From a virus (taxonomy: Duplodnaviria > Caudoviricetes): a stretch of 55,484 bases of DNA. The stretch is from IMG/VR virus record IMGVR_UViG_3300050331_000110, positions 1 through 55,484 of that record; one strand, 5' to 3'. The notes below the pieces were generated by a model that saw only the letters and a list, made by a program, of their open reading frames with translations, was not told where the DNA came from and ran no database searches. This document shows, one piece after another, positions 1,044 to 17,037 of the stretch (within the stretch, counting starts at the first letter, position 1; each line of letters starts with the position of its first letter). A program made the translations under genes and the position numbers.

Positions 1044-1199
1044 ATGTACCTAACCCTCGTCATCCTTGCCATCCTGTTCTTCGCCTTCCTGGCTTACGCT
1101 CCAGAGGTGGCACTTCAGACGCTATTGGCCGGCGTGTGGCTACTGATGATTGTCGCCGGGGTTGGCAGCATTGCGTGGGAAATCGTCAAAAGGCTCTAG
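1044..1199 (+). CDS. 51-aa two-TM membrane protein (moron, possible superinfection exclusion)
   Basis: Read manually: MYLTLVILAILFFAFLAYAPEVALQTLLAGVWLLMIVAGVGSIAWEIVKRL; upstream TTGCCA(1010)-16-GATAAT(1032); overlaps the 3' end of the giant gene. Confidence 0.6.
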   Translation: MYLTLVILAILFFAFLAYAPEVALQTLLAGVWLLMIVAGVGSIAWEIVKRL

Positions 1200-4100
1200 C
1201 CTCAAACTGGTCCACCGCCTCGTTGAACTTCAGCATCTCCGCCGTGATCCTGTCTTCTATGCGCTTGATGCTTTCCCTTGTTGCATCCTTGGCAATCATT
1301 TCGCGCTTCTGCCGGCGCAGCTTTTGAACCACCCTGTCGGCATGCTCGGCACGAACGATAAGGCGATACTTGGGATTGTCGCGCTTGAACTCGTCGGTCG
1401 GGACCCCATCATCGCGCCGCCCCTTTAGCTCGGTGGCCAACAGGTTGATCTCCTTCAGGTTGCCGTAGAACTTGTTGCCCTGGCTGGACTGGTTTTCGGT
1501 ATTCCCATAGAACCGGCCGAACAGAGGGATCTTGTGCGTAGGCAAATCCTCCCCTGTGACCATGGCGCCACCGGTCTGTGCAGCCTTAGACAGTTCACGC
1601 CCAACGCCACCAGTAACCTGCCCGATCAGGTAGTCAATCTGATCCGCGGTCGGGCTGAATGCGCCCGGAGTGTAGTCTGTGCCACCAGTCGCCCAATTCA
1701 CCCCTTCGGCCATGAACTTCGCCCAAGCGCTTGCCGTGTCCTTGTTGCGCTCAAAGCCTGGGGTCGGCTTCATTGAATTGAAGTCATCCTTGTAAATCGG
1801 CTTTCCGGTCCAGTCGCGGTTTTCTGCCAGCGCTGCGAACGGGTCAATGGCGGTCGGTGCGATGGTCTGCATCGACAAGCCGGCACTTCCGATGGGGTTG
1901 AAGGCTTCGGCGAATACCGCAATCAGGCGAACCACATGCTCGGCCGGATTCTTGAATCCGCCCAGCGCAAACTCGGCCGGGATGCGCCCAAGGTTGGTTA
2001 TGGCGTGATAACCAAGTGGCATCGGGATGGAAATGTACCGCTTTCCGCCTATCGGGAAAATCAGGTTGCGCTCGCGCATGAATTCAGGCGGCTCGTCATC
2101 ATCGAACCCGGCCGCGGCCAGAGCCAAGGCCTGCGTGACTCCCAGCAACACCCCCCCACCAACAATAGCCTTGCCCATCTTGCTCAAGCGCAGCGTCTTG
2201 ATGTCGCCGCCCTTCATGTCAAACACTGTATGTCCGATGCGCGAGGTTCCCTGCATCGCAGCATTAAAGAAGGCGTACAGCGCCCCGGCCTGCTGCCCAG
2301 CCTGCCCCTTGCGGTTGAAGTTGACGGTGGTGTTCTTCGCCAGGCTGGCCGCCTGCTGCTTGGTGAGACCGTTGTCGATGGCGGTCTTGTAAATGGCCAG
2401 GCGCGTGGAACCTTCCATCATCAGGTTGTAATCAGACAGCCAGTCGAAAATAGGGGTCGCCAAGTCCTGCGCCACGGTCAGCGGCACCTTGAGCGTTCCA
2501 TCTGCCGTAAACACCTTGCCCCACTTGCTGTTCACCCACCCATGCGGATCAAGCTCATGCTCGATTGCCTTGGCGCGATCTGCGCTGTTGCGGTACAGGT
2601 CGCGGTAGCCTGTCATGCCACCCTCGTCCTGCAGCTCTTCCCATAACTGCGCCCATCTCGAGGTTGCCGGATGCCCCTTGCGCTCGGCGCGCGCATCCAG
2701 ATAGATACCCTTTGCGGCAGACAGGATATACCCCATCACCTCGGCCTTGTGTTTGGCCAGTGGGGTCGAGGTCAGATTCAGTGCCGCGCCCTGCACGTCG
2801 CGCACCAGGTTGGTAAAGCCGAAAATCGGGTTATATTGCGTATTGATCGAGGCAAAGTATCGCGTGATCTTGGCTGATACGCCCAGCACGCCGCCCAGCT
2901 CAGTAGCGTCCAGGTTCTTCATCGACTGAGCCATGCGCATTGCGCGCTCGTCGTGCTCGTTGAAAATCACCGCCCGTTCGTGAACCTGCCCGTTGCCGTC
3001 CTTGATCTTGGCGATTACCACGTTATCGCGGCTCTTGAAGGTCGGATCGATACGCTCTTCCACCAGCCCGGTCGTCTCATTCAGCACGCGCTCGGTAGGC
3101 ACCTTGCCGAACGTCCAGAAGTCAGGGTTCGGGTTGAGCTTCGCCAGCCCGGCTAGCGCCACGGCAACGCGGTTCTTTTCGCCGCGGACAATCGCCTTCT
3201 CGCGCTGCATGGCGATATTGGCGAAGATGTCCACCACGGCAGCCGTAGAACCGGTGCGATGCTTCACTTCCTTACCCTTAATCGAGAACCCCTGCCCGAT
3301 GCCCATGCTGCCATCGTGATCCTCGCGCATCAGCGGGACGTAGTGCTTGAACATCTGCGCCCAGCTATCGGCCTGGTCCTTGGAAACCAGCCCGTAGGAA
3401 ACGTACAGGTCGCGCGTCTTGGCGATGATGGAATCCACCTTCGCCGCGGTCGCGTCCAGCCGCTTGAGCTTGTCCGCCGGCAGCTTGGCGAAATAATCGT
3501 CCGCCTCCTGGTTGGTCATTCCAGAGCCGCCGTCCTGCATATTCGGGTCGCGCTGCGCGATCAGCGCATTGGCTTCCTTTGCATGGCGTGCGTGCAGGTA
3601 TTCGTCAAGTTCGTCCATGGTCAGGCCGCGCGCCTGCATCTCCACCAGCAGCGGCTTGAGTTCGGTGTTGACGAAATCCTGAGTGCGCTTTGCCGCCCGT
3701 CCGTGGAATAGCTCTTCCTGCAGGTAGGCGTTGTATTTTTCCGCCAGTTGCGCACCGGTACTGCGCACCGCCTCGACCACCCGCTTCAGGTCGATGTTCT
3801 TGTCCTGCAGCTTGTAAACCAGATCATCGAACATCGAAGGCTCTGGAGAGTCCCATGAGGCGCTGCTTCCTGCCTGACCGCCTTGAAGCGGGATACTTCT
3901 CTGCCGTGGAGGACGGATACCGGGATAGGAAAGGCCGATGTCGCCTGTTGCCGATGGCGCAACAGACGCCAGCGGAGAGTCTAGTGCTTCAGAATCCGCA
4001 GGCTTGGATTGAGCTTTTGAAAGTATGCGACGGCTTCGTTCTGCGCTTGCTGAAGCTGCCCTAGTTCGGAGTTCGTCAGTCGTTCGGAAACCAATGAGGT

Positions 4101-7100
4101 ATTGGGCTTCGTCACTGGTGAGCGCGCTTGGCTCAACGCCGAAGAGTTCTCTGATTGCTTGTCCATGACGCACCTCCAAACTGCGAACGATTTTCGCATC
4201 AGGTGTAATGTTACCAGAACGGCTGGCGTTTGTCAGCAGCACCGCGCCAGATACAACACCGCCTTGCGACTGGATGTAGCTCGCCAGGTCGGCCAGCGTA
4301 CCGCCCATCGTGGAAACATCATCGACCAGGACATACTTCTGCCCGGCCACCACTTTCCCTCCAAACTCGGAACGCGCGATCAGGCGCTCCATTGCGTCAG
4401 CTCCGGTGTGGTAGGCCTTGTTCGTCTGTAATATACCGGTTGCCAGCATACCGCCGGCCTGCTCTACATAATGCCGTGCCAGCGCATTCGGTATCTGATT
4501 CTTACCGGACGCCTCCAGTGCCATCACCGGAAGATAGGCCACATCGTCGCCGAACTTTGCACGCGCCGCCTCGATGCTCTCCGGCTTGACAAGATCGGAC
4601 ACAAGCCGCACCGCCGCGCCGATGTCGCCGCCCTTGGCCGCCTTGTAGTCGGCATGGCGTTTCAGCGTTACATCGTTACGGAAGTCGGACATCACTTCGC
4701 CTGTGAATGCGTTGCTGCGCGACGAAGCATTGTCGTTCTGAGTGCGCGATGCCATTACCGCTCCACCCGTATCTTGCACGCCTTCCTGTTCTGATTCTGA
4801 CACCGCGCGTATCTGCTCGCGGAGCATGGCGACTACATCTGCATCGCTCACACCTTCCGACTGCTTGCCTAGCATCCTGGCGACGAAGGCGCGCACCGCA
4901 TCGGCCACCCGCTTGAGCATGCCAAGCAGGTTGTTGCGCATGACTACCGGCACCTTCACACCGTAACGGCTCAGAATCGCGTCATGGTCTCCGGTCACAT
5001 AGGCGGCCGTCAGTTCGGCAATGGCTTCGTCCAGGTGGGTCTTTTCGCTGTATGTCTGGCCACGGTCGGCGGCAATGGCCTTGGCGAGCTTGCGCACAAA
5101 GCCGTTCTTTCCGGCATGATCCAGCGCCGCAGCTATGCCGCGATCCAGCATGCGGATCCCGCCATGCCCGGCCACTTCATGCACCGCCACCCATACCGCG
5201 CGTTCTGGCGTGGCGATGTTGCCCGCGATCAGATAGACGGTTTTGGTCAGCGGGTCATAGATACCCTCGGTGCCTTGGTCTATCGGCTTGGCCGCACGAA
5301 GCGCGCGCAGGTACAGCTCGGTCGGTATTTCCTTGACTGACCGCACAACCTTGACGTTCTTGAACCCTGCCCAGCTTGCGCGCAGTCTGGCGGTGGCTTG
5401 GGTGACGGACTCGACGGTTTGACCTGCATTTTGTGCCGATACGCTCTGCATCACCTCGCCGGAGTCTGACAGTTCGCGCGCCCGCTCCAGCAAGTCGGCA
5501 TTACCCTTGGTCAGCATCTCGACCTGCAAAGCCTTGGCCGGCCTGTAGCGCGCAGCAAAGTCATCGTCCGCCCGATCCAATCCGCTCAGATTATGGATGA
5601 TGTCGGCCAGCTTGATGGTCTGCGCTTCAGCACTTATTTTAGAACTGCGCTCTCGCTTGGCCGCCTCGCGCTCTTCGCGGGTGCCAGCAGTCTTTTCGTC
5701 AGTCAGTTCGGCTACAAGGTCGGCCACCTTATCACCCAGCTCGCGGCGCACGTCCTCGATGGTCGCCTTGGTATCCTCAACCGTGTCATGCACCCATGCG
5801 GCGGCCAGCATTTCCTCAGTGTGCGGAACGGTTTTCAGCACCTCAACCACCCCGGCCGGATGCGTAATGTACGGCTCGTTGGTGAACTTGCGGCGCTGGT
5901 CTATCTCGCCGTGATGCCGGTCGGCGAATGCCTTGGCCTTCTGCACCAGCTCGGAGTCAGACTTATCCTGGCCATCCCTGACCATTTCGGCCTCGAGTGC
6001 CGCTGCTTCCTTGGTCTTGTCTGCCAGTTCCTGCGCAAACTGGAACGGCGCATCCATCCTGCCTTCAAGTGAGCCGCGCTTGGACTTGGCATCGGCTATT
6101 GATTGGCGCATCTCGTCAGGCTTGCGCGCAATGGCGGTCAGTGCGTTGGTCGCGCGGATCGTCATGCCAACCGGATCTTCTATCGGGTCGCGCGCCAGGA
6201 TAACGCCATCCTCGCCCACCTTCATTTCCAGCCTTGCGTAATAGCCCAACACCTTGCCGTCATTGTTGCGGTCGATATTTCCGATGATCTCCACCGGGAA
6301 GCCGGACAACTCGCCGGCCACCTCGCGCCCCTCTTTGCTGGAATCGGTGTATTGCTTCAGCTTGGCCAGCAGCGCCTCGCCCCATTCCTTCCTCTTATCG
6401 AACACCTGCTTGCCAGCCTTTGCGGTGAACCGGTCTCCGCTCAAGTCCTGCACCTTGGCGGCCAGCTTCTCTGCTTCTGGAAGCCTGCGCTCCGAAACAT
6501 CGATGGTATTTCCGGCGAGCATGTAGGATTCCTTCATGCGCATCCGGTTGTCTTCGTGCGCCCGATAGAGCCGCTGATACTTCTCGATGTCCGCCTTGAG
6601 TCCGGCCAGTTGTACCGCCCTAGGATCTCCGGCCGTCATGGCCGTGGCCATCTCGAACTGGCTCACCTCGGAAATGTCGTCCAGCGTGCGCACCGACGAG
6701 TCTCCGGAGAGCGCCTGATCGATGAATCGCTGCTTGCTGGCCAGCATCTGCCACATCACCGTGTCGTAGCTGTCCTTTGTCGAATAGGCGAAAACCCTAA
6801 CTCGGCGGTTCTTATTCCCTTGACGGATGATGCGCCCCTCGCGCTGCTCGAGGTCGGACGGATACCATGGCGTGTCCAGGTGGTGCAAAGCGCGCAGGCG
6901 CTGCTGTGCGTTGACGCCAGTACCCATGTTCTTGCTGCTGCCTGTCAGGATGCGCACGCGCCCGGCGTTGAAATCCTTGAACAGCTTTTGCTTGGCGTCC
7001 GACTTCTTGTAGTCCGACATGAAGGCCACTTTGCTCAACGGGATGCCGGCACCCTGCAGGCGCTTCTCGAACCATGCGCGCGCATTGAACCCGCGATGTT

Positions 7101-10100
7101 CCGCCACCCCGGCACCAAAGCCAAGGTCTGAGAACACCATCTGCGTGGCACCCTTGGCCTCTTCCACCTTGCCGGTTTTTTTGTCGGTGTACTCGAAATC
7201 GGCGTATTTCTTGTATGACCTGATAACGCCATCGATCATCTGGTTCAGCTTGGAATTCGGGTCGGAAGGCAGCGACGGGTCGATGAAGCGCATGTCGATG
7301 GCCGCCAGCCTGCCATCACCGATGATCTTGATGATCGGATCGGGGTTATTCGGCTCATCCCTCGATGGCTTCCAGTCGCGCGACTTTTTGAGCCGGCTCG
7401 CCAGCACTTCCTTGTACGCGCGGTAATCCTCGACTGCTGGGGTGACGACCAGCCGGCGGTTGCCTTCCTTGAGCTTTGGCCGCTTGTCTCCAAGCATTTC
7501 CGCCAGATGGTCTGAGGTCAGGACATCGGCGAACTCGCGGAACATCTGCGTCAGTTCTGGCACGTTCACGAACTTCGAGAAGCGCGTTACCGGTGAATAC
7601 TTGCCGGAAGCATCGGCCTCGATGGCGGTATGCTCTTCGCCAAACATGGATGCCCAGGCATCGAACTCCTGCAAGCCGCGCTCTTCCAGCACCTGCGGAG
7701 CCATGAACCGCTGCACGGTATAAAGTTCGGCTATCGTGTTGGTGATCGGCGTGCCGGATGCCATGACCAGAGACCGGCCCGGCTTCTTCTGTTCCAGCCA
7801 GCGGGTTTTCATCCACAGGTCGAAGGCGCGCTCCGAACCAGTGGAGCTGATGCCCTTGACCTGCCTTGTCGTGGTGAACGCCAACTTGCGGAATTCGTGC
7901 GCCTCATCGACGTACAGCATGTCCACGCCCATTTCGTCAAAGCGCACGTTCTTGTCCTTGCCTTCGCCGGACATGGCGGCCTTGAGCTTTTCTTCCAGTT
8001 TTTCGATGCGGTTCTGGATGTCGCGCACGCGAGGGCTGCGGCTCTTCTTGGCATCGTCCACGCCTTCATCGTCCAGCATTTCCTCCATGGCCGCTTCCAT
8101 CTGGTCGAGCTGCTCTTGGATCATCTTCTGCTTGAACTCAGGGTCCAGGTCGAGCAGCTTGAATGCGGAATGCGTGATGATGACGCCATCCAGGTCGGAC
8201 ATGGCGGCGCGCGTCACGAAGCGGCGGCGGTTCTCGGTATGGAACTGCTTTTCGTCGGCAACCATCAGGCGCGCTGCCGGGTAGAGTTGCAGCCATTCCT
8301 GCGCAAACTGCTGCAGCATGTGGTTTGGAACAACCATCATTGGCTTGTTAATCAGGCCGAGGCGCTTCTGTTCCATGGCCGAAATAACCATTTGCCAGGT
8401 CTTGCCGCTCCCGACCGCGTGGGCCAGATAGGTATTGCCGGTCTGAATGACGCGCCACGCGCCGCGCTTCACATGGTCGAATACCGGGATGGTCGAGGTC
8501 GTGCCGGGCAAGGTCAGGTGCCGGCCGTCAAACTTGCGAGCGACGATGGTATTGAATTTGTCGTTATACAGCGCAACCAGCTTGTCGGTGCGCGCGCTGT
8601 CCTGCCACATCCAATCCTTGAAGGCTTGGCGCATTTCCTTGAGCTTCTGGTTTGCCGCCTCGGTGGCGTTGGCATCGAACACAGTCTTCTTGTCGGACCC
8701 GCTGCCTTCCGTCCTGGTAACGCGGATCGGCCTGCCGGTCAGCCCGGCTTCCAGAATGTCGGCGGCGTTGCGCTGCGGCGTACCCCAATCCGAGGTTGCC
8801 TGCACGGTGCTATACCCGGAAATGGCATCGACGCGCCACTGGCCGGTATGCTCGTTGTAATCCACCGTCGCCTTGACTCCCGTCTTTTCCCGCAGGAATT
8901 GCGCATATACCTCGCTGGGGATCCAGTTCATGCCCAGCGCCGCGGTAATGTCTGCCGGGGATACCGGAGCCGGCTGCGCCGCGATCAGCGCCTCCACGTT
9001 GCGCTCGAAGCGTTTGTCGGCCTTGGCGGCTTCCTTGGCTTCCTTGAGCTTCTTCTTCACGTTGCCGGACAGGTATTCGTCCTGCATCTGCCAGCCTTGC
9101 GATGGAGATTCGTAGATTGACGAGCCAAGCGCCTCGATCACTTCGCGCTCATTCAGCCCGATACGCTCTGCAATCAGCGGCAGGTTGACTGTGCCGGTGT
9201 CATTCAGGACAGACAAGAGCGCATCGTGCGGCGTGCTGATGTTGGCAACCTTGCGCATTTCCAGCACGCGCTTGTGCAGGAACTCGCCCTCCTTGATCTC
9301 GCCGGTTTCCTCGTTGAGCGATTCCAGCGCGTACAGCTTGGAATACTCCGGATCATCCATGAGCTTATTGAGCAGGTCGAAGCGGCGCGACGGCGTGACA
9401 ACCTCGACCTTTTCCCCGGTATCCTCGTCTATTTCCGTAGTGGTGCGCTCGACAACGGTGTTTTGCAGGATGTTCCCATGCTTCTTGACGAAAGACTGGT
9501 ATTCATTCCGCAGAGCTTTAAGAGAAGCCTCCCAATCCCCATCGTTCAGCTGGTCGTATTGCGCCTGATTCACCGCATCGCGCAGCTTCACGAAGTCCTT
9601 GACCATGGGGATGCTCTTGAGAGCTATGTTTGCCGGAACGCCTACGCGCCCCTCTATCTGCATCAGCCGGCCATCATCGGCAACGTAATAGTTACCCTCC
9701 TTCTTGGCCTTCGGATTCCAGTCGATCTCCCGTACCTGGGCGGCCTGTGCGGAGCTTCCCGCTTCCGGCCGGTAGGCATCCTTGGGCAGCTTGTCGATGG
9801 CGTCCGTCAGCAGCTTCTCGATAGGCACCGACTTGTTGGGCAGCACGGTGTACTGGTTCTCGGCGTACATGCCGTTCTTATCCAGAGCACCCTCGCCAAG
9901 CACCATGTCTGGATTTTTGGCGAAATACTCATTGATAAGGTGCGTGCCGCCCTTGACCTTGATCTTTTCCAGCTTCATCCAGTCGTGGCCTTCAAAGGTC
10001 TCGCCCGGAACCTTCTTGCGCAGGAACAGGATGTCCGTGACGACTTCCGTGCCGGCGTTCTTCTTGAAGGCCGTTTCCGGCAGCCGGATCGCCCCCAGCA

Positions 10101-13100
10101 GGTCGGCGCGCTCGGCAAGGTATTGCCGCGCCTTGTCGCCCTGCTTGTCCATGGTGTAGCGGCTGGTAACGAACATCACCAGGCCGCCCGGCTTTACCTT
10201 GTCCATGGTTTTGGCGAAGAAATAGTCGTGCAGCGCAAAGGCGTTTTTCTTGTAGCGCGGGTCCGACAAAACCTTGGTATCCGAGAAAGGCGGGTTTCCG
10301 ATGGCCACATCGTAGAAGTTGTCAGGCAGGGCGGTGTCGATGAACGATTCCACCAGGATGCGCTCGTCCGGCTGCAGGTGTTTCAGGATGGCACCGGTCA
10401 GCGCGTCATACTCGATGCCGGTATAGATTGAATTATTGGACACGGCGGACGGCATCAGGCCGGGGAATACCCCGTTACCGGCGCCCGGCTCAAGAATCGC
10501 GCCACCCTTGAACCCGAGGCGGTCCAGCGCGCGCCACATCTCATTGACTACTTCCTTGCCGGTGTAGTGCGCATACTGCGTGGACCGCTCGGCGGTAGCC
10601 CATTCCTCATCGGTCAACAGCCCTTTCAGGCGGTCGCGCAACTCCAGCCACTTGATCGCGTCCTTGTCCTTGAGCAAGTTTTCCAGCATGGGCTTGCTTA
10701 CTTCCTGCCCATACATGACAGGATGGCCAGCCGCATTCAGCATGGACGTGACCGTATAGTACGGGCTGGCGTAATCGTAGCGGCTCAGAGACTCCTTGCC
10801 GTTCTTTGTCAGCCATTCATGCGCGTCGTTGTAGGTATCGACCGCGCGCTTGACGCGATCAATCTGCGGGTCGAATATCTTGTTCCGGATGTCGGACGCG
10901 CCCCAGCCGATGAACCGGGCGAGCTTAGCCTGCTCTTCGCGGGTGGCCTTGCGGCCTTCTGATTCGAGATTTTTTACAATCTCGATGGCCTCGATGTTTT
11001 GCCGGGCCTTGACCAGCCAACTCCCCTTGTAATCCAGGTCGGAGTCGGTGAAGTGGTAGTTCAGTCCTGACTTGGCCGGGATGTCTCTTCCGGCGGGAAT
11101 TCCAGCTGCTCGGCCAGCACGATCTCCCTTGCTTGGTGCAGCGCGGCGTTGTAGATCGCCGTCCGCTCCATTCCCTGCACCTCGTTCATCCCCTGCTTGA
11201 CCGCTATCTGATGCGCCAGGGATGTCGTTAGCGACGATATTTCCTCCGAGCGCTCCATGATGAACGCTTCCAGATTGCCGCTCGATTGCAGTTCCGCCAT
11301 CAATTCCGGCGCCTTGTGCTTGAGTGCTTCGCGCACCAGGTTGCTCGTTTTCATGCTGCGCTCCTTGTGTGGTATTTTTGCCACTACCCGATGCTTCATT
11401 ATTGCTTATGGTTGCATTTTTTGCTATAGTGTGCTTGGAGGAACCAGAAATGAAATTACCAGATAAGTTTCCCGTAGGCACCAAGTTCTTCGAGTCGGAA
11501 GGCGGAGATGCTTTCTGCAAGATTGGCGACGACTGGTTCAGGCTGGATTGTGAGCTGGGAGATGAGCCGTCGCTTTGCCCAATGGATAACGCGCCGATCT
11601 CGTACTTATTCTCCGTGTCCGAAGAATACTTCTTGGGCGATCTTGCAAAGGCGGCAGCATAAAGCGCCTTCTGCGCGTCGTCCAATTCGGCCTTGAGCGG
11701 GTCGTCATCACGAAGCACTCTTGAGTGCTCATAAAGCTCGTGACCTAAATCTTTAGCGGCCAACATGGCGGGGATGTTAATCTGAATTTCCGCTTTCGTT
11801 CCATCCTTCAAAACCACGTTGATTAGAATGTCACGATAGCCGAGCGGATCAGGCTCTTTGAATCTGTCTTTCAGGCGCTCGCCCCTTCTATCACGGTCTA
11901 ATACAAATTTCTCGCGGATGGCTTTAATGGCAGCCTGAATATCATCAGTTGACTTGACGACAATAGTGGCGCGTAGCAGGTCGCGCATTTTTTCTGTCTC
12001 ATACCTGCGCACGCCAAACAAGTCAGGCGCAGACCTGTTTTCAATATGCAGTTTCTCAGCCGCCCGACCAATCCCTTTCACCTTCGCCAGCATTTCGCCG
12101 ATACCGACCTCATTGGCAATCTCAACAACCATCCGGTCGAACTCCGGCTTATTCTTCTCAGCCTTGGCAAGTAACGGCTTGAGTGCAGCTTCTGCAGCCG
12201 CACGGTCCTCTGCGCTGATGGTTGTATCTTTGGCCTTCGGAGCCTTGGCGATCAGGTCATGAGCGCGTTGCAGCACATCGCCAGGCACGAACTCATGCAG
12301 CGCAGGTAGCTTGAAGTTGCGGCCATCAGATTTCTTGTCCGCGTTGGTCATGCGATCCTGAACGTGACCGTCTTCGCTCTTTCTGGCTTCTGCCTCCATC
12401 CGGTCAGCGGCGGCACGCAGCAACTCGGCGGCGGACATTTCGCTTGCAGGCTTGTGCGGTGTGTTGGCGCGGATGGCTTCGGCGTATTTCCTGGATGGTT
12501 GCTCAACCAACACAGCGGCCAGTTTGTTGAAATAGACAACGGGGTACTTCGCCCCCATGTCTGAAGTAATATCTCCTGCCGCAGCTCCGATACCAGACTT
12601 GATTCCGTTGCGCTTGAGGCCGAAATGCTCGATCAGGAACGGCGAGATTTCAGGCTGACGCAGGTAGGTATGACCATCTTGAAGCTGCGGGAATGCGGCT
12701 TTCCATTCTGAGAATGTCGGGTTTTCTCCGTCCTTGATCTTATCTGCTGCAGCTTTCTGCGCCGCAACAATCTTTTCGTGCTGCGCCGCGAATCCAGATT
12801 GCGCATCCATCGTTTCGCGCAAACTCTTCGCGGCAGCACCCTTACTGTCCATCAGATTGCCAGCAAGCTCTCCGCTTTGCGCTATCCACTTGCCGCGCCC
12901 AAGCTGGCCTTTACCTTCGCTGAAAACGGTATCGGTCGGCAGGCTGTACTGCTCGATTATTGCTTGATCGCTATTTACGCTTCCTGCCTGTGCGCTTGAC
13001 GTTTTTTCCGAAGGCAGATCAAGCAGACTTGCCTGGCCATGGGCTGCGCCAACATCTGCAGGACGGTCAGAACCGGTCAGTAAGAATTCATCAGGGGATG

Positions 13101-16100
13101 GCGCAGAGTCGCGCTTTGCTTTCTCGTCAGCGGATTTCTTGGCGGCAGTTTCGCGCGCCAATACTTCGGCATTGGTGTAGCTTTGCAGAACCGGTGCTTC
13201 CTGCTCAAACAGCCCTTGATTATCAAAGAACCCTTCCGGCATGTTGCCGGCCGCATTCTTGGCTGCCTCGTCCAGCCAATCCCTTGGCAGGAATTTCGCC
13301 AGCTTTGCATCCAGCTTGGCCAGTTGATCGCGCACATAGCGCGAGGCGTCCTTCATTTCGTAGTAGCCAAGGCGGAAGGCGGCATCGAACATCTTGACCA
13401 GAACCGGCATCCACTTCGGCCTGTCCTCCGGCACGATGTTCATTACCCCGGCCATCCCGCGCAGCAGTGCGCCAGCCTCGGCAAGTGCCGATTCCATATC
13501 GGCCTGCGCCTGGGCGCGTGCATCCTGTCCTGTTGATTCGCGCGCATCCAGAATGGCTGCACGGTTGGTCTTGCTGATGAAAGCCCACCCGGCAGGCTTG
13601 ATGTCCAGCCCGGCCTTGGCAATGGCCTCCTTGCGTTGGTCGCTGGTGAGGGATTCCCACCAGGATTTTGACTCTACTTCTTGTTGCGTTCCTGCTTCGG
13701 CGGACCGGACTTCTTGAGCTGCTCGATCACCAGTTCGTCCTGCTTGGTCTTCGGCTCCCCGCTGAACATCCTGCCCAGCAGCGCCGCGCCCTGCGGACTG
13801 TCCCAAGTCTTGCGTCCCTGTGGTGTCATTGTCGAACCTCCTTAAAACATCCTCACGAACCGTACCCGTCCCGCCGAACATATCCCCGGCGGCATTGTGT
13901 GCAGCACCCTCGGCAGCGTAGTTCGCCGCTCCGTTCAGCGCCTCAGTGATGCGCTTGGCTGACCGCACGTTCTGCGCGAACATATCCAGCACCACCTGCA
14001 CACCATTAGAATGCGCCAAATCCTTCTGATTGGCAAGTTTTGTGACAGAAACACCTTGCCGGCCGGCATTCACCACGGCCGTTGCGGCCTCCACAATCAG
14101 CGGACGGATGTCCAAATCACCGGCACCTTCCAGCTTCATCATGGCCGGCGCCGCATTGGATAGCGCGGCGATCACGGTTCTGGCTTCCGGTTCGGTAGAT
14201 TGCACCGCCAGTTCTACCAGTTCCTCACTGCCATAGGCTTGATACAGACTCGCGCCGAGCACGCGATCCACGGCCTGCTTGGTCGGCACGCCATTTGGCG
14301 CCAGGTTCTGCCTTTCCCCTTCCGGCATGGCCTGAATAAAGCCGCGCATCGCCTCGGTGGTCGGCGTGCCGTTCTCGTTGAATGTCAGCGCGGCAATGTC
14401 CACCCTTCCGGCATCGTTGCGAGCCTGTTCGACCGCGGACAATCCAAGCGTGCCGGTGGTGTTGCTCTCGTCGCCGATACTTTCCGTCACATGCTCGGCA
14501 CCGATCAGGCGCACCAGTACCGGTTTTTTCATGCCGCGAATCACGCCAGCATTGATGCCATGCACGCCTTCCGCCTTGGCGATGGCCTCCTTGTATGCCA
14601 GTGCCGTGCCTTTGCTGTACGCCTCTATCACCCCGGCCGTGCGGCCGTTGTTGATCGCCACCAGCTTATAAGGATTGGCGGCATATTCCGGATTGCGCGC
14701 GCCGTCCGCAAAATTGGAAGTGGCGAGCTGGTCTGCCTCGACAACGGCATACCGGAACGGGATCTCGCGCTTCCCGGTAACTACCGCATCCTCATTGCCG
14801 ATATGCTTCACGACCCCCTTGTTTTCCAGGTCGGTCACAACAGGGGCGCCGTTCTCCATGGTTGGGGATGCCATCAGCAGGCGCGGGTTTGGATTGGCTG
14901 CGATGGCCTGCATCTGCAGCACAGAAGCCTTGCTGTTGCGATTGCGGTTTTGCAGGGATTGAATAACCGGGTTTGTTACTGCACCCCGCCCTGCGGCGGA
15001 GTCCAGTACAGCTCCACCTTGTCCAGCGCCGCCCACAGTTGCGCCGGTATCTGGTCGCAGTTCAGTTGATCGGCCAGCATCAATGCCTGCGCCTCCTGTT
15101 CGGTCAGCACTTCCAGCGGCATCCAGTACGGAAGTTCTTGGTGCAGCAGTCGTGCCATTGGCGGACTCCGGTTGTTGAGCGACATTCGCGGCCGGTTTTT
15201 TGATGGGCGCCGCGGGTTGTACCATTTCAGGCAGCTGCGGCAGACTATTAAGGTATTCGCGCTGCGCCACGTTCAGGTGCAGCACCTTCCCCTTGCTATT
15301 GACCAGTTTCTTTCCGCCTGCGGCCAGCCTGTAGCCGCCCAACAGGTATTCATCGACCTGGGCGATCTTCTGCTCAAGCGTGCGCTCCGCATTCGGCTTG
15401 GCTTGTGGATGGCCAGGAATGCCAAGATCCACGGCCGGCTCTTCCGGCATGGCATTGAACGCCTGATAAGCCTGTTCGCGCTTGGCGATGATGGCCTTCT
15501 CTTCGGGCGTGGGCATGGGATTGTTCGGGAATTCCGACTCGAGCGCGGCCAGGAATGAAATACCGGGCGTGCGCTCTTCTGGATTGGTATAGACATCATC
15601 CAGTAATTTAAGGCGTGCCGCGCGTGTTTCTTCGGCCTGCACGCCTGCGACTCTGGCATCCACAGACTCAAGCGCCGACTCGCGCTGGATACCTTGCAGG
15701 TTAATCAGGCCTGCGCGGCGCTGTTCTACATCGGCGCGCTCTTGTGCCACAAGGTCGGCCAGCTCATTGACTGCGCCGAAACCGGTTGTGCCTTGCGATA
15801 AGGCTCCGAATTCGCGCACAGGCGGCGTAGCCTCTTGCGCCGTAGCCGGATCATCCAGCAGATCGGTAGCGTCAAGCGAGGTTGCATCGTCGAACTTCTG
15901 CAGGGCCTCATCAACGGATGGCGCGGCGAGGATGTCTTCGGGGGTGGTAATTTCGTTTGCGGCAGAAATTAACCCCTTGTATTCGAGATTATTGCCTGGT
16001 GCTTTATTGTAGTTGTAGGCTGTTTCGGCGGCGCTTTGCGTGAAGCTGGATAGCGCCTCGATGGTAGCGTCAACGGCATCACCCTTTCCGGTTGCCGCCA

Positions 16101-17028
16101 TCTCGCCAAAGTATTCGCCAACACCTTCGCCAAGCGTTTCCATGCCAAGGCCGGTGCCGGCAATGCCAGCTTTTTTTCCGACCGACAGTGCGGACGTTGC
16201 AGCCTTTTCTCCGGCTGTGACTGCCGCCTTGTAGAGTGCCTTGTCTGCAGCCAATGCGGCATTGATCGTTGCGGGAGTTGACATATCCACCCCAGCATTG
16301 AGCAATACCTCGGCTTCTGCTCTTGCCCCGGCGCGTTTCGCCAACTGCCCACCAATGGCGTTAGCCGTGACTCCGCCCATTTTCAAAGTTGCAGCATCGA
16401 CCGCTGTTATCACCCCAGCCTTGACAGCACCCTCTTTAATTGCCTCGCCGCGCTCCGCCTCGGTAAATCCGCCTTCCGACTTTTCAAGAGCCTTGCCACC
16501 AGTTTCAAGCAGTGTGTTACCAAGGAACATGCCGCCAAGAAAACCAAGCGCGCCGCCTACTGCCGTTCCAACGCCAGGCGCAACCATTGTCCCAAGAGCC
16601 GCTCCCGTCTGCGCTCCAGCCAATCCGCCGCCAAGCGCAACAGCACTATTCGGCGCCTGCTCGGCAATCATTTGAACGGTTCCCATCTTATTGCGGCCGG
16701 CCGCGGCCAGCGTATCGCCGATCTGTCCAGCAACGCCTTGCTCACGGTCAATAGCGGCAATCTCTTCTTGCAGCTTGCGCTGTTCGGCTGGCGTGTTAAT
16801 GGCAGCGGATTCTTTGGATGCCGCAGCATAACCCTCTACATCGGCAAGGTCGCCGGTATAGGTATTCCCGGCCGCACCAACCATGCGCCCGGTTTGCTTG
16901 GCTCCGGTCCAAACATTTTTCACTGCACCGATCAAGCCGCTTGGAGCTTCGGATTCCTTCGGAATTAAATCGTCAAACGCTCCGGCAGATGAGGTGTTAC
17001 CAGGAATAAGATCGTCAAATGCGCCCAT
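1186..17028 (-). CDS. Giant polyvalent DarB-like virion/ejected protein (ParB-like, RelA/SpoT-like, N6-MTase, SNF2 helicase, HD hydrolase, metallopeptidase, PRTase, LPD38-like)
   Basis: 5280-aa uninterrupted ORF; motifs LQNRNR..GAPVV, RDLLRAT/GYRD/EIQI, ILEPGAGNG/GNPPF, AHAVGSGKT/DEAH/QREGRIIRQGN, PYITHP/HDTVED/KLAD, HEVAGH, VLVDDVSTMGGT; lies at the end of the structural operon. Confidence 0.92.
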   Translation of the reverse strand: MGAFDDLIPGNTSSAGAFDDLIPKESEAPSGLIGAVKNVWTGAKQTGRMVGAAGNTYTGDLADVEGYAAASKESAAINTPAEQRKLQEEIAAIDREQGVAGQIGDTLAAAGRNKMGTVQMIAEQAPNSAVALGGGLAGAQTGAALGTMVAPGVGTAVGGALGFLGGMFLGNTLLETGGKALEKSEGGFTEAERGEAIKEGAVKAGVITAVDAATLKMGGVTANAIGGQLAKRAGARAEAEVLLNAGVDMSTPATINAALAADKALYKAAVTAGEKAATSALSVGKKAGIAGTGLGMETLGEGVGEYFGEMAATGKGDAVDATIEALSSFTQSAAETAYNYNKAPGNNLEYKGLISAANEITTPEDILAAPSVDEALQKFDDATSLDATDLLDDPATAQEATPPVREFGALSQGTTGFGAVNELADLVAQERADVEQRRAGLINLQGIQRESALESVDARVAGVQAEETRAARLKLLDDVYTNPEERTPGISFLAALESEFPNNPMPTPEEKAIIAKREQAYQAFNAMPEEPAVDLGIPGHPQAKPNAERTLEQKIAQVDEYLLGGYRLAAGGKKLVNSKGKVLHLNVAQREYLNSLPQLPEMVQPAAPIKKPAANVAQQPESANGTTAAPRTSVLDAAGSADRTGGAGIDAGRSTELRPDTGATVGGAGQGGAVLDSAAGRGAVTNPVIQSLQNRNRNSKASVLQMQAIAANPNPRLLMASPTMENGAPVVTDLENKGVVKHIGNEDAVVTGKREIPFRYAVVEADQLATSNFADGARNPEYAANPYKLVAINNGRTAGVIEAYSKGTALAYKEAIAKAEGVHGINAGVIRGMKKPVLVRLIGAEHVTESIGDESNTTGTLGLSAVEQARNDAGRVDIAALTFNENGTPTTEAMRGFIQAMPEGERQNLAPNGVPTKQAVDRVLGASLYQAYGSEELVELAVQSTEPEARTVIAALSNAAPAMMKLEGAGDLDIRPLIVEAATAVVNAGRQGVSVTKLANQKDLAHSNGVQVVLDMFAQNVRSAKRITEALNGAANYAAEGAAHNAAGDMFGGTGTVREDVLRRFDNDTTGTQDLGQSAGRGAAGQDVQRGAEDQAGRTGDRAAQEVRSAEAGTQQEVESKSWWESLTSDQRKEAIAKAGLDIKPAGWAFISKTNRAAILDARESTGQDARAQAQADMESALAEAGALLRGMAGVMNIVPEDRPKWMPVLVKMFDAAFRLGYYEMKDASRYVRDQLAKLDAKLAKFLPRDWLDEAAKNAAGNMPEGFFDNQGLFEQEAPVLQSYTNAEVLARETAAKKSADEKAKRDSAPSPDEFLLTGSDRPADVGAAHGQASLLDLPSEKTSSAQAGSVNSDQAIIEQYSLPTDTVFSEGKGQLGRGKWIAQSGELAGNLMDSKGAAAKSLRETMDAQSGFAAQHEKIVAAQKAAADKIKDGENPTFSEWKAAFPQLQDGHTYLRQPEISPFLIEHFGLKRNGIKSGIGAAAGDITSDMGAKYPVVYFNKLAAVLVEQPSRKYAEAIRANTPHKPASEMSAAELLRAAADRMEAEARKSEDGHVQDRMTNADKKSDGRNFKLPALHEFVPGDVLQRAHDLIAKAPKAKDTTISAEDRAAAEAALKPLLAKAEKNKPEFDRMVVEIANEVGIGEMLAKVKGIGRAAEKLHIENRSAPDLFGVRRYETEKMRDLLRATIVVKSTDDIQAAIKAIREKFVLDRDRRGERLKDRFKEPDPLGYRDILINVVLKDGTKAEIQINIPAMLAAKDLGHELYEHSRVLRDDDPLKAELDDAQKALYAAAFARSPKKYSSDTENKYEIGALSIGQSDGSSPSSQSSLNQSSPILQKASPPSDSKNLVPTGNLSGNFISGSSKHTIAKNATISNNEASGSGKNTTQGAQHENEQPGARSTQAQGAGIDGGTAIERQSGSVHHGALGGNIVANDIPGASDSGQAGDERGAGNGADGDLQRRAAPSKGDRAGRAAGIPAGRDIPAKSGLNYHFTDSDLDYKGSWLVKARQNIEAIEIVKNLESEGRKATREEQAKLARFIGWGASDIRNKIFDPQIDRVKRAVDTYNDAHEWLTKNGKESLSRYDYASPYYTVTSMLNAAGHPVMYGQEVSKPMLENLLKDKDAIKWLELRDRLKGLLTDEEWATAERSTQYAHYTGKEVVNEMWRALDRLGFKGGAILEPGAGNGVFPGLMPSAVSNNSIYTGIEYDALTGAILKHLQPDERILVESFIDTALPDNFYDVAIGNPPFSDTKVLSDPRYKKNAFALHDYFFAKTMDKVKPGGLVMFVTSRYTMDKQGDKARQYLAERADLLGAIRLPETAFKKNAGTEVVTDILFLRKKVPGETFEGHDWMKLEKIKVKGGTHLINEYFAKNPDMVLGEGALDKNGMYAENQYTVLPNKSVPIEKLLTDAIDKLPKDAYRPEAGSSAQAAQVREIDWNPKAKKEGNYYVADDGRLMQIEGRVGVPANIALKSIPMVKDFVKLRDAVNQAQYDQLNDGDWEASLKALRNEYQSFVKKHGNILQNTVVERTTTEIDEDTGEKVEVVTPSRRFDLLNKLMDDPEYSKLYALESLNEETGEIKEGEFLHKRVLEMRKVANISTPHDALLSVLNDTGTVNLPLIAERIGLNEREVIEALGSSIYESPSQGWQMQDEYLSGNVKKKLKEAKEAAKADKRFERNVEALIAAQPAPVSPADITAALGMNWIPSEVYAQFLREKTGVKATVDYNEHTGQWRVDAISGYSTVQATSDWGTPQRNAADILEAGLTGRPIRVTRTEGSGSDKKTVFDANATEAANQKLKEMRQAFKDWMWQDSARTDKLVALYNDKFNTIVARKFDGRHLTLPGTTSTIPVFDHVKRGAWRVIQTGNTYLAHAVGSGKTWQMVISAMEQKRLGLINKPMMVVPNHMLQQFAQEWLQLYPAARLMVADEKQFHTENRRRFVTRAAMSDLDGVIITHSAFKLLDLDPEFKQKMIQEQLDQMEAAMEEMLDDEGVDDAKKSRSPRVRDIQNRIEKLEEKLKAAMSGEGKDKNVRFDEMGVDMLYVDEAHEFRKLAFTTTRQVKGISSTGSERAFDLWMKTRWLEQKKPGRSLVMASGTPITNTIAELYTVQRFMAPQVLEERGLQEFDAWASMFGEEHTAIEADASGKYSPVTRFSKFVNVPELTQMFREFADVLTSDHLAEMLGDKRPKLKEGNRRLVVTPAVEDYRAYKEVLASRLKKSRDWKPSRDEPNNPDPIIKIIGDGRLAAIDMRFIDPSLPSDPNSKLNQMIDGVIRSYKKYADFEYTDKKTGKVEEAKGATQMVFSDLGFGAGVAEHRGFNARAWFEKRLQGAGIPLSKVAFMSDYKKSDAKQKLFKDFNAGRVRILTGSSKNMGTGVNAQQRLRALHHLDTPWYPSDLEQREGRIIRQGNKNRRVRVFAYSTKDSYDTVMWQMLASKQRFIDQALSGDSSVRTLDDISEVSQFEMATAMTAGDPRAVQLAGLKADIEKYQRLYRAHEDNRMRMKESYMLAGNTIDVSERRLPEAEKLAAKVQDLSGDRFTAKAGKQVFDKRKEWGEALLAKLKQYTDSSKEGREVAGELSGFPVEIIGNIDRNNDGKVLGYYARLEMKVGEDGVILARDPIEDPVGMTIRATNALTAIARKPDEMRQSIADAKSKRGSLEGRMDAPFQFAQELADKTKEAAALEAEMVRDGQDKSDSELVQKAKAFADRHHGEIDQRRKFTNEPYITHPAGVVEVLKTVPHTEEMLAAAWVHDTVEDTKATIEDVRRELGDKVADLVAELTDEKTAGTREEREAAKRERSSKISAEAQTIKLADIIHNLSGLDRADDDFAARYRPAKALQVEMLTKGNADLLERARELSDSGEVMQSVSAQNAGQTVESVTQATARLRASWAGFKNVKVVRSVKEIPTELYLRALRAAKPIDQGTEGIYDPLTKTVYLIAGNIATPERAVWVAVHEVAGHGGIRMLDRGIAAALDHAGKNGFVRKLAKAIAADRGQTYSEKTHLDEAIAELTAAYVTGDHDAILSRYGVKVPVVMRNNLLGMLKRVADAVRAFVARMLGKQSEGVSDADVVAMLREQIRAVSESEQEGVQDTGGAVMASRTQNDNASSRSNAFTGEVMSDFRNDVTLKRHADYKAAKGGDIGAAVRLVSDLVKPESIEAARAKFGDDVAYLPVMALEASGKNQIPNALARHYVEQAGGMLATGILQTNKAYHTGADAMERLIARSEFGGKVVAGQKYVLVDDVSTMGGTLADLASYIQSQGGVVSGAVLLTNASRSGNITPDAKIVRSLEVRHGQAIRELFGVEPSALTSDEAQYLIGFRTTDELRTRAASASAERSRRILSKAQSKPADSEALDSPLASVAPSATGDIGLSYPGIRPPRQRSIPLQGGQAGSSASWDSPEPSMFDDLVYKLQDKNIDLKRVVEAVRSTGAQLAEKYNAYLQEELFHGRAAKRTQDFVNTELKPLLVEMQARGLTMDELDEYLHARHAKEANALIAQRDPNMQDGGSGMTNQEADDYFAKLPADKLKRLDATAAKVDSIIAKTRDLYVSYGLVSKDQADSWAQMFKHYVPLMREDHDGSMGIGQGFSIKGKEVKHRTGSTAAVVDIFANIAMQREKAIVRGEKNRVAVALAGLAKLNPNPDFWTFGKVPTERVLNETTGLVEERIDPTFKSRDNVVIAKIKDGNGQVHERAVIFNEHDERAMRMAQSMKNLDATELGGVLGVSAKITRYFASINTQYNPIFGFTNLVRDVQGAALNLTSTPLAKHKAEVMGYILSAAKGIYLDARAERKGHPATSRWAQLWEELQDEGGMTGYRDLYRNSADRAKAIEHELDPHGWVNSKWGKVFTADGTLKVPLTVAQDLATPIFDWLSDYNLMMEGSTRLAIYKTAIDNGLTKQQAASLAKNTTVNFNRKGQAGQQAGALYAFFNAAMQGTSRIGHTVFDMKGGDIKTLRLSKMGKAIVGGGVLLGVTQALALAAAGFDDDEPPEFMRERNLIFPIGGKRYISIPMPLGYHAITNLGRIPAEFALGGFKNPAEHVVRLIAVFAEAFNPIGSAGLSMQTIAPTAIDPFAALAENRDWTGKPIYKDDFNSMKPTPGFERNKDTASAWAKFMAEGVNWATGGTDYTPGAFSPTADQIDYLIGQVTGGVGRELSKAAQTGGAMVTGEDLPTHKIPLFGRFYGNTENQSSQGNKFYGNLKEINLLATELKGRRDDGVPTDEFKRDNPKYRLIVRAEHADRVVQKLRRQKREMIAKDATRESIKRIEDRITAEMLKFNEAVDQFEARAF
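3981..4166 (-). CDS. Nested 61-aa gene in the +1 frame, over the end of the PRTase domain
   Basis: GGAGGT RBS before ATG; MDKQSENSS...SERLTNSELGQLQQAQNEAVAYFQKLNPSLRILKH; promoter-like site upstream. Confidence 0.65.
   Translation of the reverse strand: MDKQSENSSALSQARSPVTKPNTSLVSERLTNSELGQLQQAQNEAVAYFQKLNPSLRILKH
4208..4236 (-). promoter_or_regulatory. Internal sigma70-like promoter inside the PRTase coding sequence
   Basis: CTGACA-17bp-TAACAT with extended TG, about 40 nt upstream of the nested ATG at 4166. Confidence 0.55.
11061..11354 (-). CDS. Nested 97-aa TnpV-like helical protein in the +1 frame
   Basis: AAGGAG RBS; LQSSGNLEAFIMER...KQGM...NAALHQAREIVLAEQL resembles TnpV from memory; the giant frame here is a low-complexity linker. 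Confidence 0.7.
   Translation of the reverse strand: MKTSNLVREALKHKAPELMAELQSSGNLEAFIMERSEEISSLTTSLAHQIAVKQGMNEVQGMERTAIYNAALHQAREIVLAEQLEFPPEETSRPSQD
11398..11430. promoter_or_regulatory. Overlapping divergent sigma70-like promoters inside the giant gene
   Basis: Plus strand TTGCTT(11402)-17-TATAGT(11425) with extended TG; minus strand TAGCAA-17-AATAAT; locally AT-rich. Confidence 0.65.
11450..11662 (+). CDS. Antisense nested 70-aa acidic protein, candidate antitoxin/immunity for the RelA/SpoT-like domain
   Basis: GGAGG at 11437-11441, own promoter; MKLPDKFPVGTKFFESEGGDAFCKIGDDWFRLD...; converges on the end of the synthetase domain. Confidence 0.72.
   Translation: MKLPDKFPVGTKFFESEGGDAFCKIGDDWFRLDCELGDEPSLCPMDNAPISYLFSVSEEYFLGDLAKAAA
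13674..13829 (-). CDS. Nested 51-aa basic protein in the +1 frame after the ParB-like domain
   Basis: TAAGGAGG RBS 7 nt before ATG; MTPQGRKTWDSPQGAALLGRMFSGEPKTKQDELVIEQLKKSGPPKQERNKK; below the ORF-track cutoff. Confidence 0.62.
   Translation of the reverse strand: MTPQGRKTWDSPQGAALLGRMFSGEPKTKQDELVIEQLKKSGPPKQERNKK
14976..15158 (-). CDS. Nested 60-aa protein in the +1 frame just before the ParB-like domain
   Basis: GGAG RBS; globular-looking MARLLHQELPYWMPLEVLTEQEAQALMLADQ...LDKVELYW while the giant frame is a Gly/Ala/Arg linker. Confidence 0.62.
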   Translation of the reverse strand: MARLLHQELPYWMPLEVLTEQEAQALMLADQLNCDQIPAQLWAALDKVELYWTPPQGGVQ

Positions 17029-17037
17029 GCTTTCCCT

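Follow-up and report, generated by a model that had tools for sequence, protein, structure and literature searches.

Five short reading frames within a giant phage gene

The virus record IMGVR_UViG_3300050331_000110 (55.5 kb, about 58% GC; the whole record is called the window below) carries on its minus strand a giant open reading frame (ORF) for a protein of 5280 amino acids (aa). The subject here is a set of five short ORFs, N1 to N5, which lie inside this gene, four of them on the same strand in the +1 frame and one antisense. Comparison with related loci indicates that N3 and N5 are real genes nested in the giant gene and that N4 is probably a third. The product of N5 is probably the immunity protein, or inhibitor, of a RelA/SpoT (RSH) domain of the giant protein, while N1 is most likely a chance ORF.

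The domain order of the giant protein, from Pfam matches, is ddrB-ParB, RelA_SpoT, an Eco57I-type methyltransferase (MTase), SNF2/Helicase_C, HD_4, Pribosyltran (phosphoribosyltransferase, PRTase) and LPD38. The matches cover residues 690-840 for ddrB-ParB, 1654-1762 for RelA_SpoT, 2228-2310 for the Eco57I MTase and about 4197-4285 for the PRTase. With at least two effector or enzymatic domains together with an LPD-type domain, in a phage context, the ORF qualifies as the gene of a phage polyvalent protein, one of the DarB-like class. Such proteins, which carry many effector domains on one polypeptide and occur in phages and conjugative elements, were defined in the main text of Iyer et al. 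2017 (PMC5512222). When positions 10400-12400 were used in a DNA search, only the MTase start found matches, in 21 Ralstonia phage records, where the homologous genes carry the annotation 'DarB-like antirestriction'. The features with which we are concerned, and the Shine-Dalgarno (SD) strings before the short ORFs, are as follows.

1186-17028, minus strand: giant polyvalent-protein ORF, 5280 aa
14976-15158, minus strand: N1, 60 aa, +1 frame, SD-like GGAG, giant residues 624-685
13674-13829, minus strand: N2, 51 aa, +1 frame, SD-like TAAGGAGG, giant residues 1067-1119
11659-12351, minus strand: Tas1-like RSH domain, giant residues 1560-1790, with invariant catalytic-type residues in the alignment and Tas1 as its best solved relative
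11450-11662, plus strand (antisense): N5, 70 aa, SD-like GGAGG, giant residues 1789-1860; its stop codon directly adjoins the end of the RSH-coding stretch
11061-11354, minus strand: N3, TnpV-like, 97 aa, +1 frame, SD AAGGAG, giant residues 1892-1990; it ends where the MTase module begins
10039-11058, minus strand: N-terminal part of the DarB-like MTase module of the giant protein, directly downstream of N3
4012-4428, minus strand: core and tail of the PRTase domain of the giant protein (Pfam and alignment)
3981-4166, minus strand: N4, 61 aa, +1 frame, SD-like string, over the conserved C-terminal tail of the PRTase domain, giant residues 4288-4350

A first-pass annotation, made from the letters of the sequence, had proposed these five ORFs as a layer of hidden genes at domain edges. 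All five are present with the ends and start codons it gave, the four sense ORFs are in the +1 frame, and each has the SD-like string attributed to it (GGAG, TAAGGAGG, AAGGAG, GGAGGT and GGAGG). The residue ranges relative to the Pfam matches also agree with placement at domain edges.

Expected frequency of nested reading frames

Open frames of this size are frequent in the region, where 135 ORFs of at least 40 aa overlap positions 3500-20000, and ORF length alone is no evidence for nested genes. The probability that each frame would be open, given the giant protein sequence and codon usage, was 0.62 for N1, 0.87 for N2, 0.59 for N3, 0.35 for N5 and 0.033 for N4. The number of cases in the non-giant frames in which an SD 5-mer is combined with an ATG and an ORF of at least 45 codons was seven, against 2.63 ± 1.62 in 300 codon-resampled versions of the gene (P = 0.027). 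These seven take in N2, N3, N4 and N5, not N1. The same count over 15 other giant genes gave 43 cases against 26.9 expected; taken singly, only the gene at L007 stands out (L numbers denote the fetched loci). A block codon shuffle, scored by the length of the open run over the ORF midpoint, was rejected as a weak null; it returned P of 0.36 for N4, against 0.03-0.06 when the question was that of frame openness.

Other ORFs with SD and ATG in non-giant frames lie at 15969-16298 (minus strand, 109 aa), 13077-13337 (minus strand, 86 aa) and 2671-2877 (plus strand, 68 aa). They showed no alternative-frame conservation in the screen of alternative-frame runs described below, and about 2.6 such ORFs are expected by chance.

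It is the comparison set, consisting of 64 fetched loci, that separates the five ORFs. A PHROGs search with the five peptides gave nothing below E 0.2, and tblastn of N3, N5 and N4 against GenBank phages gave no match. Contigs from four sequencing runs were also compared with the giant gene: X3 represents the same strain, X5 and X6 consist of short and diverse fragments, and the four runs supplied no usable close relative for N1, N2 or N4.

N3 is constrained in its own frame

Seven homologues of N3 are present in the protein collection as stand-alone gene calls (58-67% identity, 97-108 aa), all on short contigs. Scans with the N3 alignment fetched 19 loci, of which four are viral, one is a Hyphomicrobiales metagenome-assembled genome and 14 are metagenomic. 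Together with the window these make 20 loci and 17 distinct sequences, and in all 20 a much longer ORF, of up to 4894 codons or reaching the contig end, contains the N3 homologue in its +1 frame, while the third frame is broken in 20 of 20. The start column reads ATG in 16 of the 17 distinct sequences and GTG in the other, and an SD-like motif was found upstream in six of the six loci checked. A stop lies directly before the ATG in four distinct loci and a few codons upstream in the others; where it lies directly before the ATG, entry by frameshifting is ruled out.

The first-pass annotation had supposed that the giant gene kept its frame open through captured partner genes, and an open giant frame across N3 is what the homologues show. 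Amino-acid identity over 15 non-redundant sequences (L003 and L007, which have near-identical partners, and the duplicates L008, L012 and L016 having been left out) is 42.6% for the N3 frame, against 32.3% for the giant and 32.5% for the third frame. The differences at N3 codon positions 1, 2 and 3 are 0.417, 0.377 and 0.484, so that the third positions of the giant frame vary least, and a control stretch in the MTase module has the normal giant-frame pattern (0.40, 0.34 and 0.57). When N3 codons were resampled, the probability of an open giant frame given the N3 protein was 0.0002-0.09 (10 of 17 loci computed). The conservation of the N3 frame and the improbable openness of the giant frame together argue that the N3 frame carries sequence constraint and that the giant frame is actively kept free of stops.

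The same conclusion is suggested by a screen of 191 alternative-frame runs of at least 45 codons. N3 ranks first for conservation of the alternative over the giant frame, with 1493 against 1242 summed bits and the alternative frame ahead in 15 of 18 loci. The alternative frame is ahead in only 8 of the 139 comparable runs, and four of those eight lie within the N3/N5 stretch. Both frames thus appear to be under selection across relatives, as defines an embedded overlapping gene, and from the comparative evidence we conclude that N3 is a real nested gene in dual-coding DNA.

The Pfam family TnpV (PF14198) is matched at E ≤ 0.01 by 16 of 19 members of the N3 family (best 1.4e-7), and one database homologue, P0006, carries a precomputed PF14198 match. 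An AlphaFold2 model of N3 is a four-helix protein with a predicted local distance difference test score (pLDDT) of 86.8. Foldseek found no match to it in the PDB at E ≤ 0.001, and the best hit of a wide VIA fold search (2apl_A, Z 6.3) was no better than what helical models usually score. Wherever a locus was found through N3, the MTase N-terminal region follows the ORF at a distance of no more than about 1 kb. Some MTase modules lack N3, in that the Ralstonia phage genes match the MTase start and not N3.

N5 is an antisense gene of a defined protein family

Twelve of the 17 distinct N3 loci have, immediately upstream of N3, a small antisense ORF that starts M[KR]xP[DE]xFP. A scan with the N5 alignment added three more distinct loci, each with the ORF antisense within an ORF of 2775-3630 or more codons. 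N5 is thus antisense within a giant ORF in 16 distinct loci in all, a diverged copy in L018 having been assigned by eye, and both frames are open in all 16. In the protein collection N5 has 38 homologues, mostly of 65-89 aa, which form a well-defined family; the family has no match in Pfam. The AlphaFold2 model, built from 11 sequences, has five strands and one helix (pLDDT 86.6; predicted template modelling score, pTM, 0.72), for which Foldseek found no match at E ≤ 0.001 in PDB or BFVD.

Only the codons of tyrosine, histidine and glutamine can give rise to stops in the giant frame, and these three make up no more than 1.4% of N5-family residues. This depletion is what dual coding would predict, and it would also follow if the giant frame came first. 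Judged by its family, its predicted fold and its recurrence in the same arrangement, N5 appears to be a real folded protein encoded by an antisense gene.

Gene callers report N3 and N5 when the giant ORF is fragmentary. The window's own copies of the two are present in the protein collection only from a 1320-base contig (P0002 and P0024).

N5 accompanies a Tas1-like RSH domain

The first-pass annotation had suggested checking whether each nested ORF co-occurs with the adjacent domain of the giant protein. For N5 and the RSH domain this is borne out; for N3 and N4 the link seen with their neighbours is one of position. In 12 distinct loci (12 of the 13 carrying N5 in this comparison) N5 lies tail-to-tail with the end of the RSH-coding stretch, and no locus has the RSH domain without N5. 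Three loci (L005, L009 and L016) have neither RSH nor N5, and there the position ahead of N3 is taken by a Zeta_toxin domain, for which these loci showed no conserved nested partner. At L018:3564-4300 a diverged N5-like ORF (start MKLPSKLL...) comes after the RSH domain, and ParB_N and RadC-like JAB domains separate the pair from N3, which is 1.7 kb downstream. This arrangement indicates that N5 travels with the RSH domain and not with N3. At L027:6001-6905 a giant ORF has RSH and antisense N5, and neither N3 nor an MTase module was found within the fetched 12 kb.

The nearest solved relative of the RSH domain is the toxin Tas1. Searched against PDB sequences, the RSH profile found Tas1 (6ox6_A) as its best match at E 5.7e-16, with other small alarmone synthetase (SAS) and Rel proteins at 1e-5 to 0.035, and the alignment holds invariant K/R/D/GY.D/E.Q/GH residues. 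By synthetase fold, motifs and closest relative the domain is of Tas1 type, with putative toxicity and putative (p)ppApp synthesis. The top fold match of N5 in a wide search was the immunity protein of Tas1 (6ox6_B), with a Z of 4.8, which is within the range of chance arrangements, a root-mean-square deviation of 3.5 and 57 of 76 residues aligned.

A complex model of RSH and N5 scored 0.85, while the best of three controls scored 0.20. The mark applied to this score is reached by 58 of 80 solved complexes and by 2 of 110 mismatched pairs, counts which are rough since our own alignments were used. The runs agree in at least 96% of contacts, the partner has a pLDDT of at least 89, and the predicted interface takes in the invariant RSH residues K100, D124, Y172, D174, N178, E188 and H204. 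The proposal that N5 serves as partner or immunity protein of the effector domain beside it is thus backed by the co-occurrence with RSH, by Tas1 as best match and by a complex model which passes its controls. N5 is probably the inhibitor of the RSH domain, predicted to cover its active site. It may work like Tis1, the Tas1 immunity protein; we do not file it as a member of the Tis1 family.

Putative expression signals in the spacer between N5 and N3

N5 and N3 are divergent, and their start codons are separated by 74-95 nucleotides (nt), 95 nt in the window, with length differences between loci in multiples of three. The signals in the window are as follows.

11402-11407, plus strand: -35-like TTGCTT for N5 (sequence read)
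11422-11441, plus strand: N5 signals, with TG at 11422-11423, -10-like TATAGT at 11425-11430 and SD GGAGG at 11437-11441
11361-11403, minus strand: N3 signals, with SD AAGGAG at 11366-11361 and -10-like AATAAT at 11403-11398, in the spacer common with N5

With the spacers read by eye, a -10-like TAnnnT on the N5 side is kept in 13 of 13 distinct loci, with a preceding TGn in 11 of the 13 as in an extended -10 element, and a -10-like hexamer facing N3 is kept in 12 of 12. The SDs of N5 (GGAGG) and of N3 are likewise conserved across these spacers.

N4 overlaps the conserved tail of the PRTase domain

Relatives of the N4 region were drawn from 32 PRTase loci, of which 26 were used after L061, L063 and L064 (distant, with indels) and the duplicate L040 had been left out. 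In an earlier comparison of six loci, with differences of 0.33, 0.24 and 0.45 at the three codon positions, the giant frame had seemed the sole selected frame, and a drop in synonymous differences was already visible.

An ATG-started +1 ORF of 55-91 codons is present at the N4 site in 25 of the 26 loci. Given the giant protein, the probability that the N4 frame would be open has a median of 0.097 (range 0.006-0.39, 26 loci). Of 137 leucine codons in the N4 region only four are CTG or TTG, compared with 26-81% elsewhere in the same genes; in the window none of six is, compared with 70% elsewhere in the gene, and many codons end in A. The synonymous test used 22 non-redundant loci, L033, L038, L046 and L051 having additionally been left out. 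Synonymous differences of the giant frame are at 0.96-1.06 of expectation per ten-column bin over the PRTase core and fall, from the N4 start on, to 0.33-0.78 (overall 0.65); the column-wise Mann-Whitney p for this drop is 9e-9, which is optimistic because the loci are related.

The SD of N4 in the window (GGAGG, 4173-4177, minus strand) is placed 6 nt before the ATG at 4166-4164. In relatives this site is built from rare arginine codons, AGG or AGA making up 20 of 27, compared with 13 of 144 upstream. Common to the N4 peptides are one half rich in Ser and Pro and a motif resembling LTPSE(L/I)EQLRQ...Y..KAF. A Protein Atlas search with N4 gave scores of 0.86 or less and no lead. These comparisons suggest that N4 is probably a third nested gene. 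The giant frame there encodes a conserved domain tail, which makes overprinting a likelier origin of N4 than capture.

A fourth nested family, and the status of N2 and N1

The count of SD, ATG and ORF combinations in other giant genes brought to light a fourth +1-frame family, of 47-67 aa, in 10 distinct loci. Its consensus is MxxLPKTPSGESxEKxxxLMxKxxGNPKMRRA..AAxKAM, and we call it the NPKMRR family. Its sites include the following.

L001:8060-8203, NPKMRR family
L002:6112-6273, NPKMRR family
L005:4303-4443, NPKMRR family
L007:57-200, NPKMRR family
L009:3233-3406, NPKMRR family
L013:4036-4215, NPKMRR family
L027:7751-7933, minus strand, NPKMRR family
L031:5443-5625, minus strand, NPKMRR family
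L034:227-427, NPKMRR family

The nested frame of the nine unique sequences shows 48.8% identity, compared with 29.5% for the giant and 30.0% for the third frame, and differences at the three codon positions are 0.41, 0.318 and 0.534. Pfam gave only weak HEAT_2 matches, in three of nine members (best E 0.0084). The family is placed after the ParB-like module, which is the place of N2 in the window. In a DNA alignment N2 has an SD-ATG context and a PKTK motif in common with its two nearest NPKMRR relatives. The similarity tests gave no hidden Markov model (HMM) hit between N2 and the family at E ≤ 0.05, an hhalign probability of 0.1% and a BLASTP alignment that is out of register (E 0.031), and N2 has no homologue in the word-indexed protein collection. 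N2 may be a decayed copy of the fourth family.

No conserved relative of N1 was found in any fetched locus. Among 1.84 billion representatives N1 had one weak match (E 2.3e-4), to a 1083-aa protein and in five stretches. With no conserved relative, one weak match and an SD of only four bases, N1 is most likely a chance ORF in stop-poor linker sequence.

DISCUSSION

Nested genes and the alternatives to them

We consider it likely that N3 and N5 are nested genes, with N4 a probable third, that N5 neutralises the RSH domain and that N1 is a product of chance. The hidden gene layer of the first-pass annotation is thereby upheld in part: comparison speaks for N3 and N5 and makes N4 probable, N1 is without support and N2 fails the similarity tests. 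Its further suggestion, that the giant gene grew by capturing whole cassettes of effector and partner, is plausible for N3, most of whose family matches a Pfam model, and for N5; it does not suit N4, which lies over a conserved domain tail.

Several results weigh against the reading as a whole or against parts of it. No RNA run is listed among the sequencing runs that contain the sequence. Sigma70-like promoters had been attributed to three of the ORFs, and a strict consensus scan of 10900-11900, the N3/N5 stretch, returned no site. With 19.6 bits, the window copy of N3 falls short of the 27-bit cut-off of Pfam TnpV, and to our knowledge TnpV has no known function. In the six-locus comparison of N4 the giant frame is more conserved than the N4 frame (57% against 43% identity), and the synonymous constraint there might be due to an element in the RNA or DNA and not to a protein. 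The frame test for N5 is nearly tied, at 40.3% identity against 38.1% for the giant frame and a BLOSUM score of 1.84 against 1.47, because the third codon positions of N5 coincide with those of the giant frame; within N5, position 2 is even slightly more variable than position 1. In L031, N5 is present and no RSH domain could be detected, a profile of N5 had no hit at E ≤ 10 among all PDB chain sequences and so no sequence similarity to Tis1, and the pass of the complex model may reflect memory of the solved Tas1-Tis1 complex.

The simplest alternative would be that all five are chance ORFs, the T-poor, low-complexity linkers of a gene of 58-60% GC being stop-poor and their purine-rich codons mimicking SDs. 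The abundance of ORFs of at least 40 aa in the region, the probabilities of 0.35-0.87 for open N1, N2, N3 and N5 frames, the 2.6 or so SD-bearing combinations expected and the want of conserved relatives for N1 and N2 all agree with this, and chance is still the best account of N1 and a tenable one of N2. As an account of all five it is very improbable, as it cannot explain the frame-specific conservation of N3 in 20 of 20 loci, a family of at least 38 proteins with a confident fold in the case of N5, or the stop avoidance, codon bias and synonymous constraint at N4. Hardly more credible is that programmed +1 frameshifting leads from the giant frame into N3 and N4, which would then be alternative C-termini and give truncated isoforms that end in a TnpV-like domain or a short tail. 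Both do lie on the same strand, in the +1 frame and at domain borders, and one mRNA could give both products since the giant frame is open; the stops before the N3 ATG (directly before it in four distinct loci, a few codons upstream in the others) and the conserved start codon and SD speak against it, and antisense N5 would be left unexplained.

A function at the level of nucleic acid, by way of internal promoters, RNA structure or an antisense RNA that regulates the giant gene, with the small proteins not made, we judge improbable to a lesser degree. It would account for the -10-like hexamers kept in the spacer, for the nearly tied frame test of N5 and for N4, where the giant frame is the better conserved and the extra constraint falls on synonymous sites only. 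It sits poorly with the coding pattern of N3 (position 3 > 1 > 2) and its identity above that of the giant frame, with models of N3 and N5 that fold at a pLDDT of about 87, with the conservation of start codons, SDs and ORF lengths, and with a leucine codon choice at N4 that exceeds stop avoidance. Somewhat less unlikely, and still a minority view, is that N5 is a real protein with some task other than RSH inhibition, such as helping in packaging as a chaperone, acting on the spacer as a transcription factor or partnering a host target. In its favour are the dissimilarity to Tis1 in sequence and the weak fold match, the retention of N5 in L031, and the chance that the complex model draws on memory. 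It leaves unexplained why N5 adjoins RSH in 12 of 13 loci and stays with it in L018, 1.7 kb from N3, why it is absent from the three loci in which Zeta_toxin replaces RSH, and why the predicted interface covers invariant active-site residues.

A possible role for the nested genes

If N5 is the inhibitor of the RSH domain, part of the 'linker' DNA of the giant gene would do double duty. The giant protein would be packaged and injected, by analogy with the polyvalent proteins described in the main text of PMC5512222. N5 would bind over the RSH active site and neutralise the domain as Tis1 does Tas1. Being antisense, with a putative host-type promoter of its own, it could be expressed without the giant gene, whether in a lysogen, soon after entry or in the cell that produces the phage, and the activity of the toxin-like domain would thereby be confined to the places and times at which it serves the phage. 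N3 and N4 may be partners of the MTase-helicase and PRTase modules. The phage is temperate, as its gene content of integrase (1-981), portal-like gene and RecT/RecE, alongside a DNA methyltransferase, indicates. The integrase gene adjoins the 3' end of the giant gene, which agrees with a temperate phage and makes expression of the nested genes in a lysogen conceivable.

A wider design rule can be offered only tentatively, and we lean towards doubting it. Each dangerous or regulated module (the RSH toxin, the MTase-helicase, the PRTase and the ParB-like region) would bring its own small partner gene, in another frame or on the other strand of the linker DNA, which would leave the polyprotein unbroken, with its own signals and a different schedule, and at least four nested families would exist in this lineage. 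If the rule were true it would amount to a built-in timer: an injected toxin domain would act first, and an antidote made from the incoming or resident genome would then switch it off.

Comparison with known systems

The closest parallel is Tas1-Tis1 of Pseudomonas aeruginosa (PDB 6OX6). The RSH domain is closest to Tas1, and it too has an adjacent small partner, which is predicted to sit on the active site and has Tis1 as its best, though weak, fold match. The arrangement differs in that the N5 gene is antisense and wholly inside the ORF of the toxin domain, whereas Tis1 is a separate downstream gene; the RSH domain is internal to a 5280-aa phage protein, whereas Tas1 is a secreted effector; and N5 is without sequence similarity to Tis1. 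According to the relevant part of PMC11782079, toxic SAS proteins (toxSAS) that produce (pp)pApp are inhibited by Tis1 domains which occlude the acceptor site. In type II toxSAS systems, as the relevant part of PMC7229694 describes them, an RSH-type toxin is likewise neutralised by a small protein encoded beside it, the role that we predict for N5. N5 and RSH are not bicistronic, however, the toxin is a domain of a virion-type polyprotein, and N5 has the opposite orientation and promoter-like elements of its own. A type II toxin-antitoxin pair consists of two adjacent co-directional genes in one operon, and N5, antisense and wholly within the toxin-bearing ORF, does not have that form.

The N3 family resembles TnpV in matching the Pfam model and in size (97-129 aa). 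It differs in being nested out of frame in a phage giant gene, in the window copy's score under the Pfam cut-off and in its four-helix model. TnpV was first named in Tn4451, and a role in excision was postulated from homology to lambda Xis, as given in the relevant part of PMC3158075. The giant protein shares with the polyvalent proteins of PMC5512222, and with DarB of phage P1, the presence of RelA/SpoT, PRTase, MTase-helicase and LPD38 in one polypeptide, while nested genes are not part of the architecture described in the main text of that paper. In that main text, to which supplements are attached that lie outside the scope of the count, the terms 'overlapping', 'antisense', 'TnpV' and 'immunity protein' occur 0 times. 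A literature search found no paper on nested genes in polyvalent proteins; it did not cover supplements, which may bear on the claim.

Complete small genes embedded out of frame in larger ones are familiar from Rz/Rz1 of lambda and from comS in srfAB. Like these, the nested ORFs have their own SDs inside a larger gene, and N3 and N4 are in its +1 frame. The differences are that several nested families occur per host gene, one of them antisense, and that at N3 and N5 the host frame is only stop-free read-through. In this sense N3 and N5 are clean cases, in which the long frame does nothing but read through the short gene, and N4 is the opposite, a conserved domain over which a short frame has been written, so that one gene would show both routes to dual coding. 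Viral overprinting is itself the subject of reviews, PMC8227390 among them.

Ordinary annotation would thus miss a layer of genes inside the giant gene, at least two and probably three small genes with one of them running backwards. Gene callers forbid nested genes, so such proteins will be missing from phage annotations, or the giant gene will be cut for their sake. An antisense immunity gene within the ORF of its own toxin would allow a toxin-immunity cassette to be kept in the middle of a polyprotein without splitting it, and the N5 arrangement is a testable model of temporal control over injected toxin domains.

Other reading frames in the giant gene

Opposite the helicase region of the giant gene there are also long antisense ORFs, at 7630-9120 (plus strand, 496 aa), 9226-10431 (plus strand, 401 aa) and 6103-7131 (plus strand, 342 aa). 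Codon shuffles yield antisense ORFs of lengths similar to these, that antisense frame being generally stop-poor.

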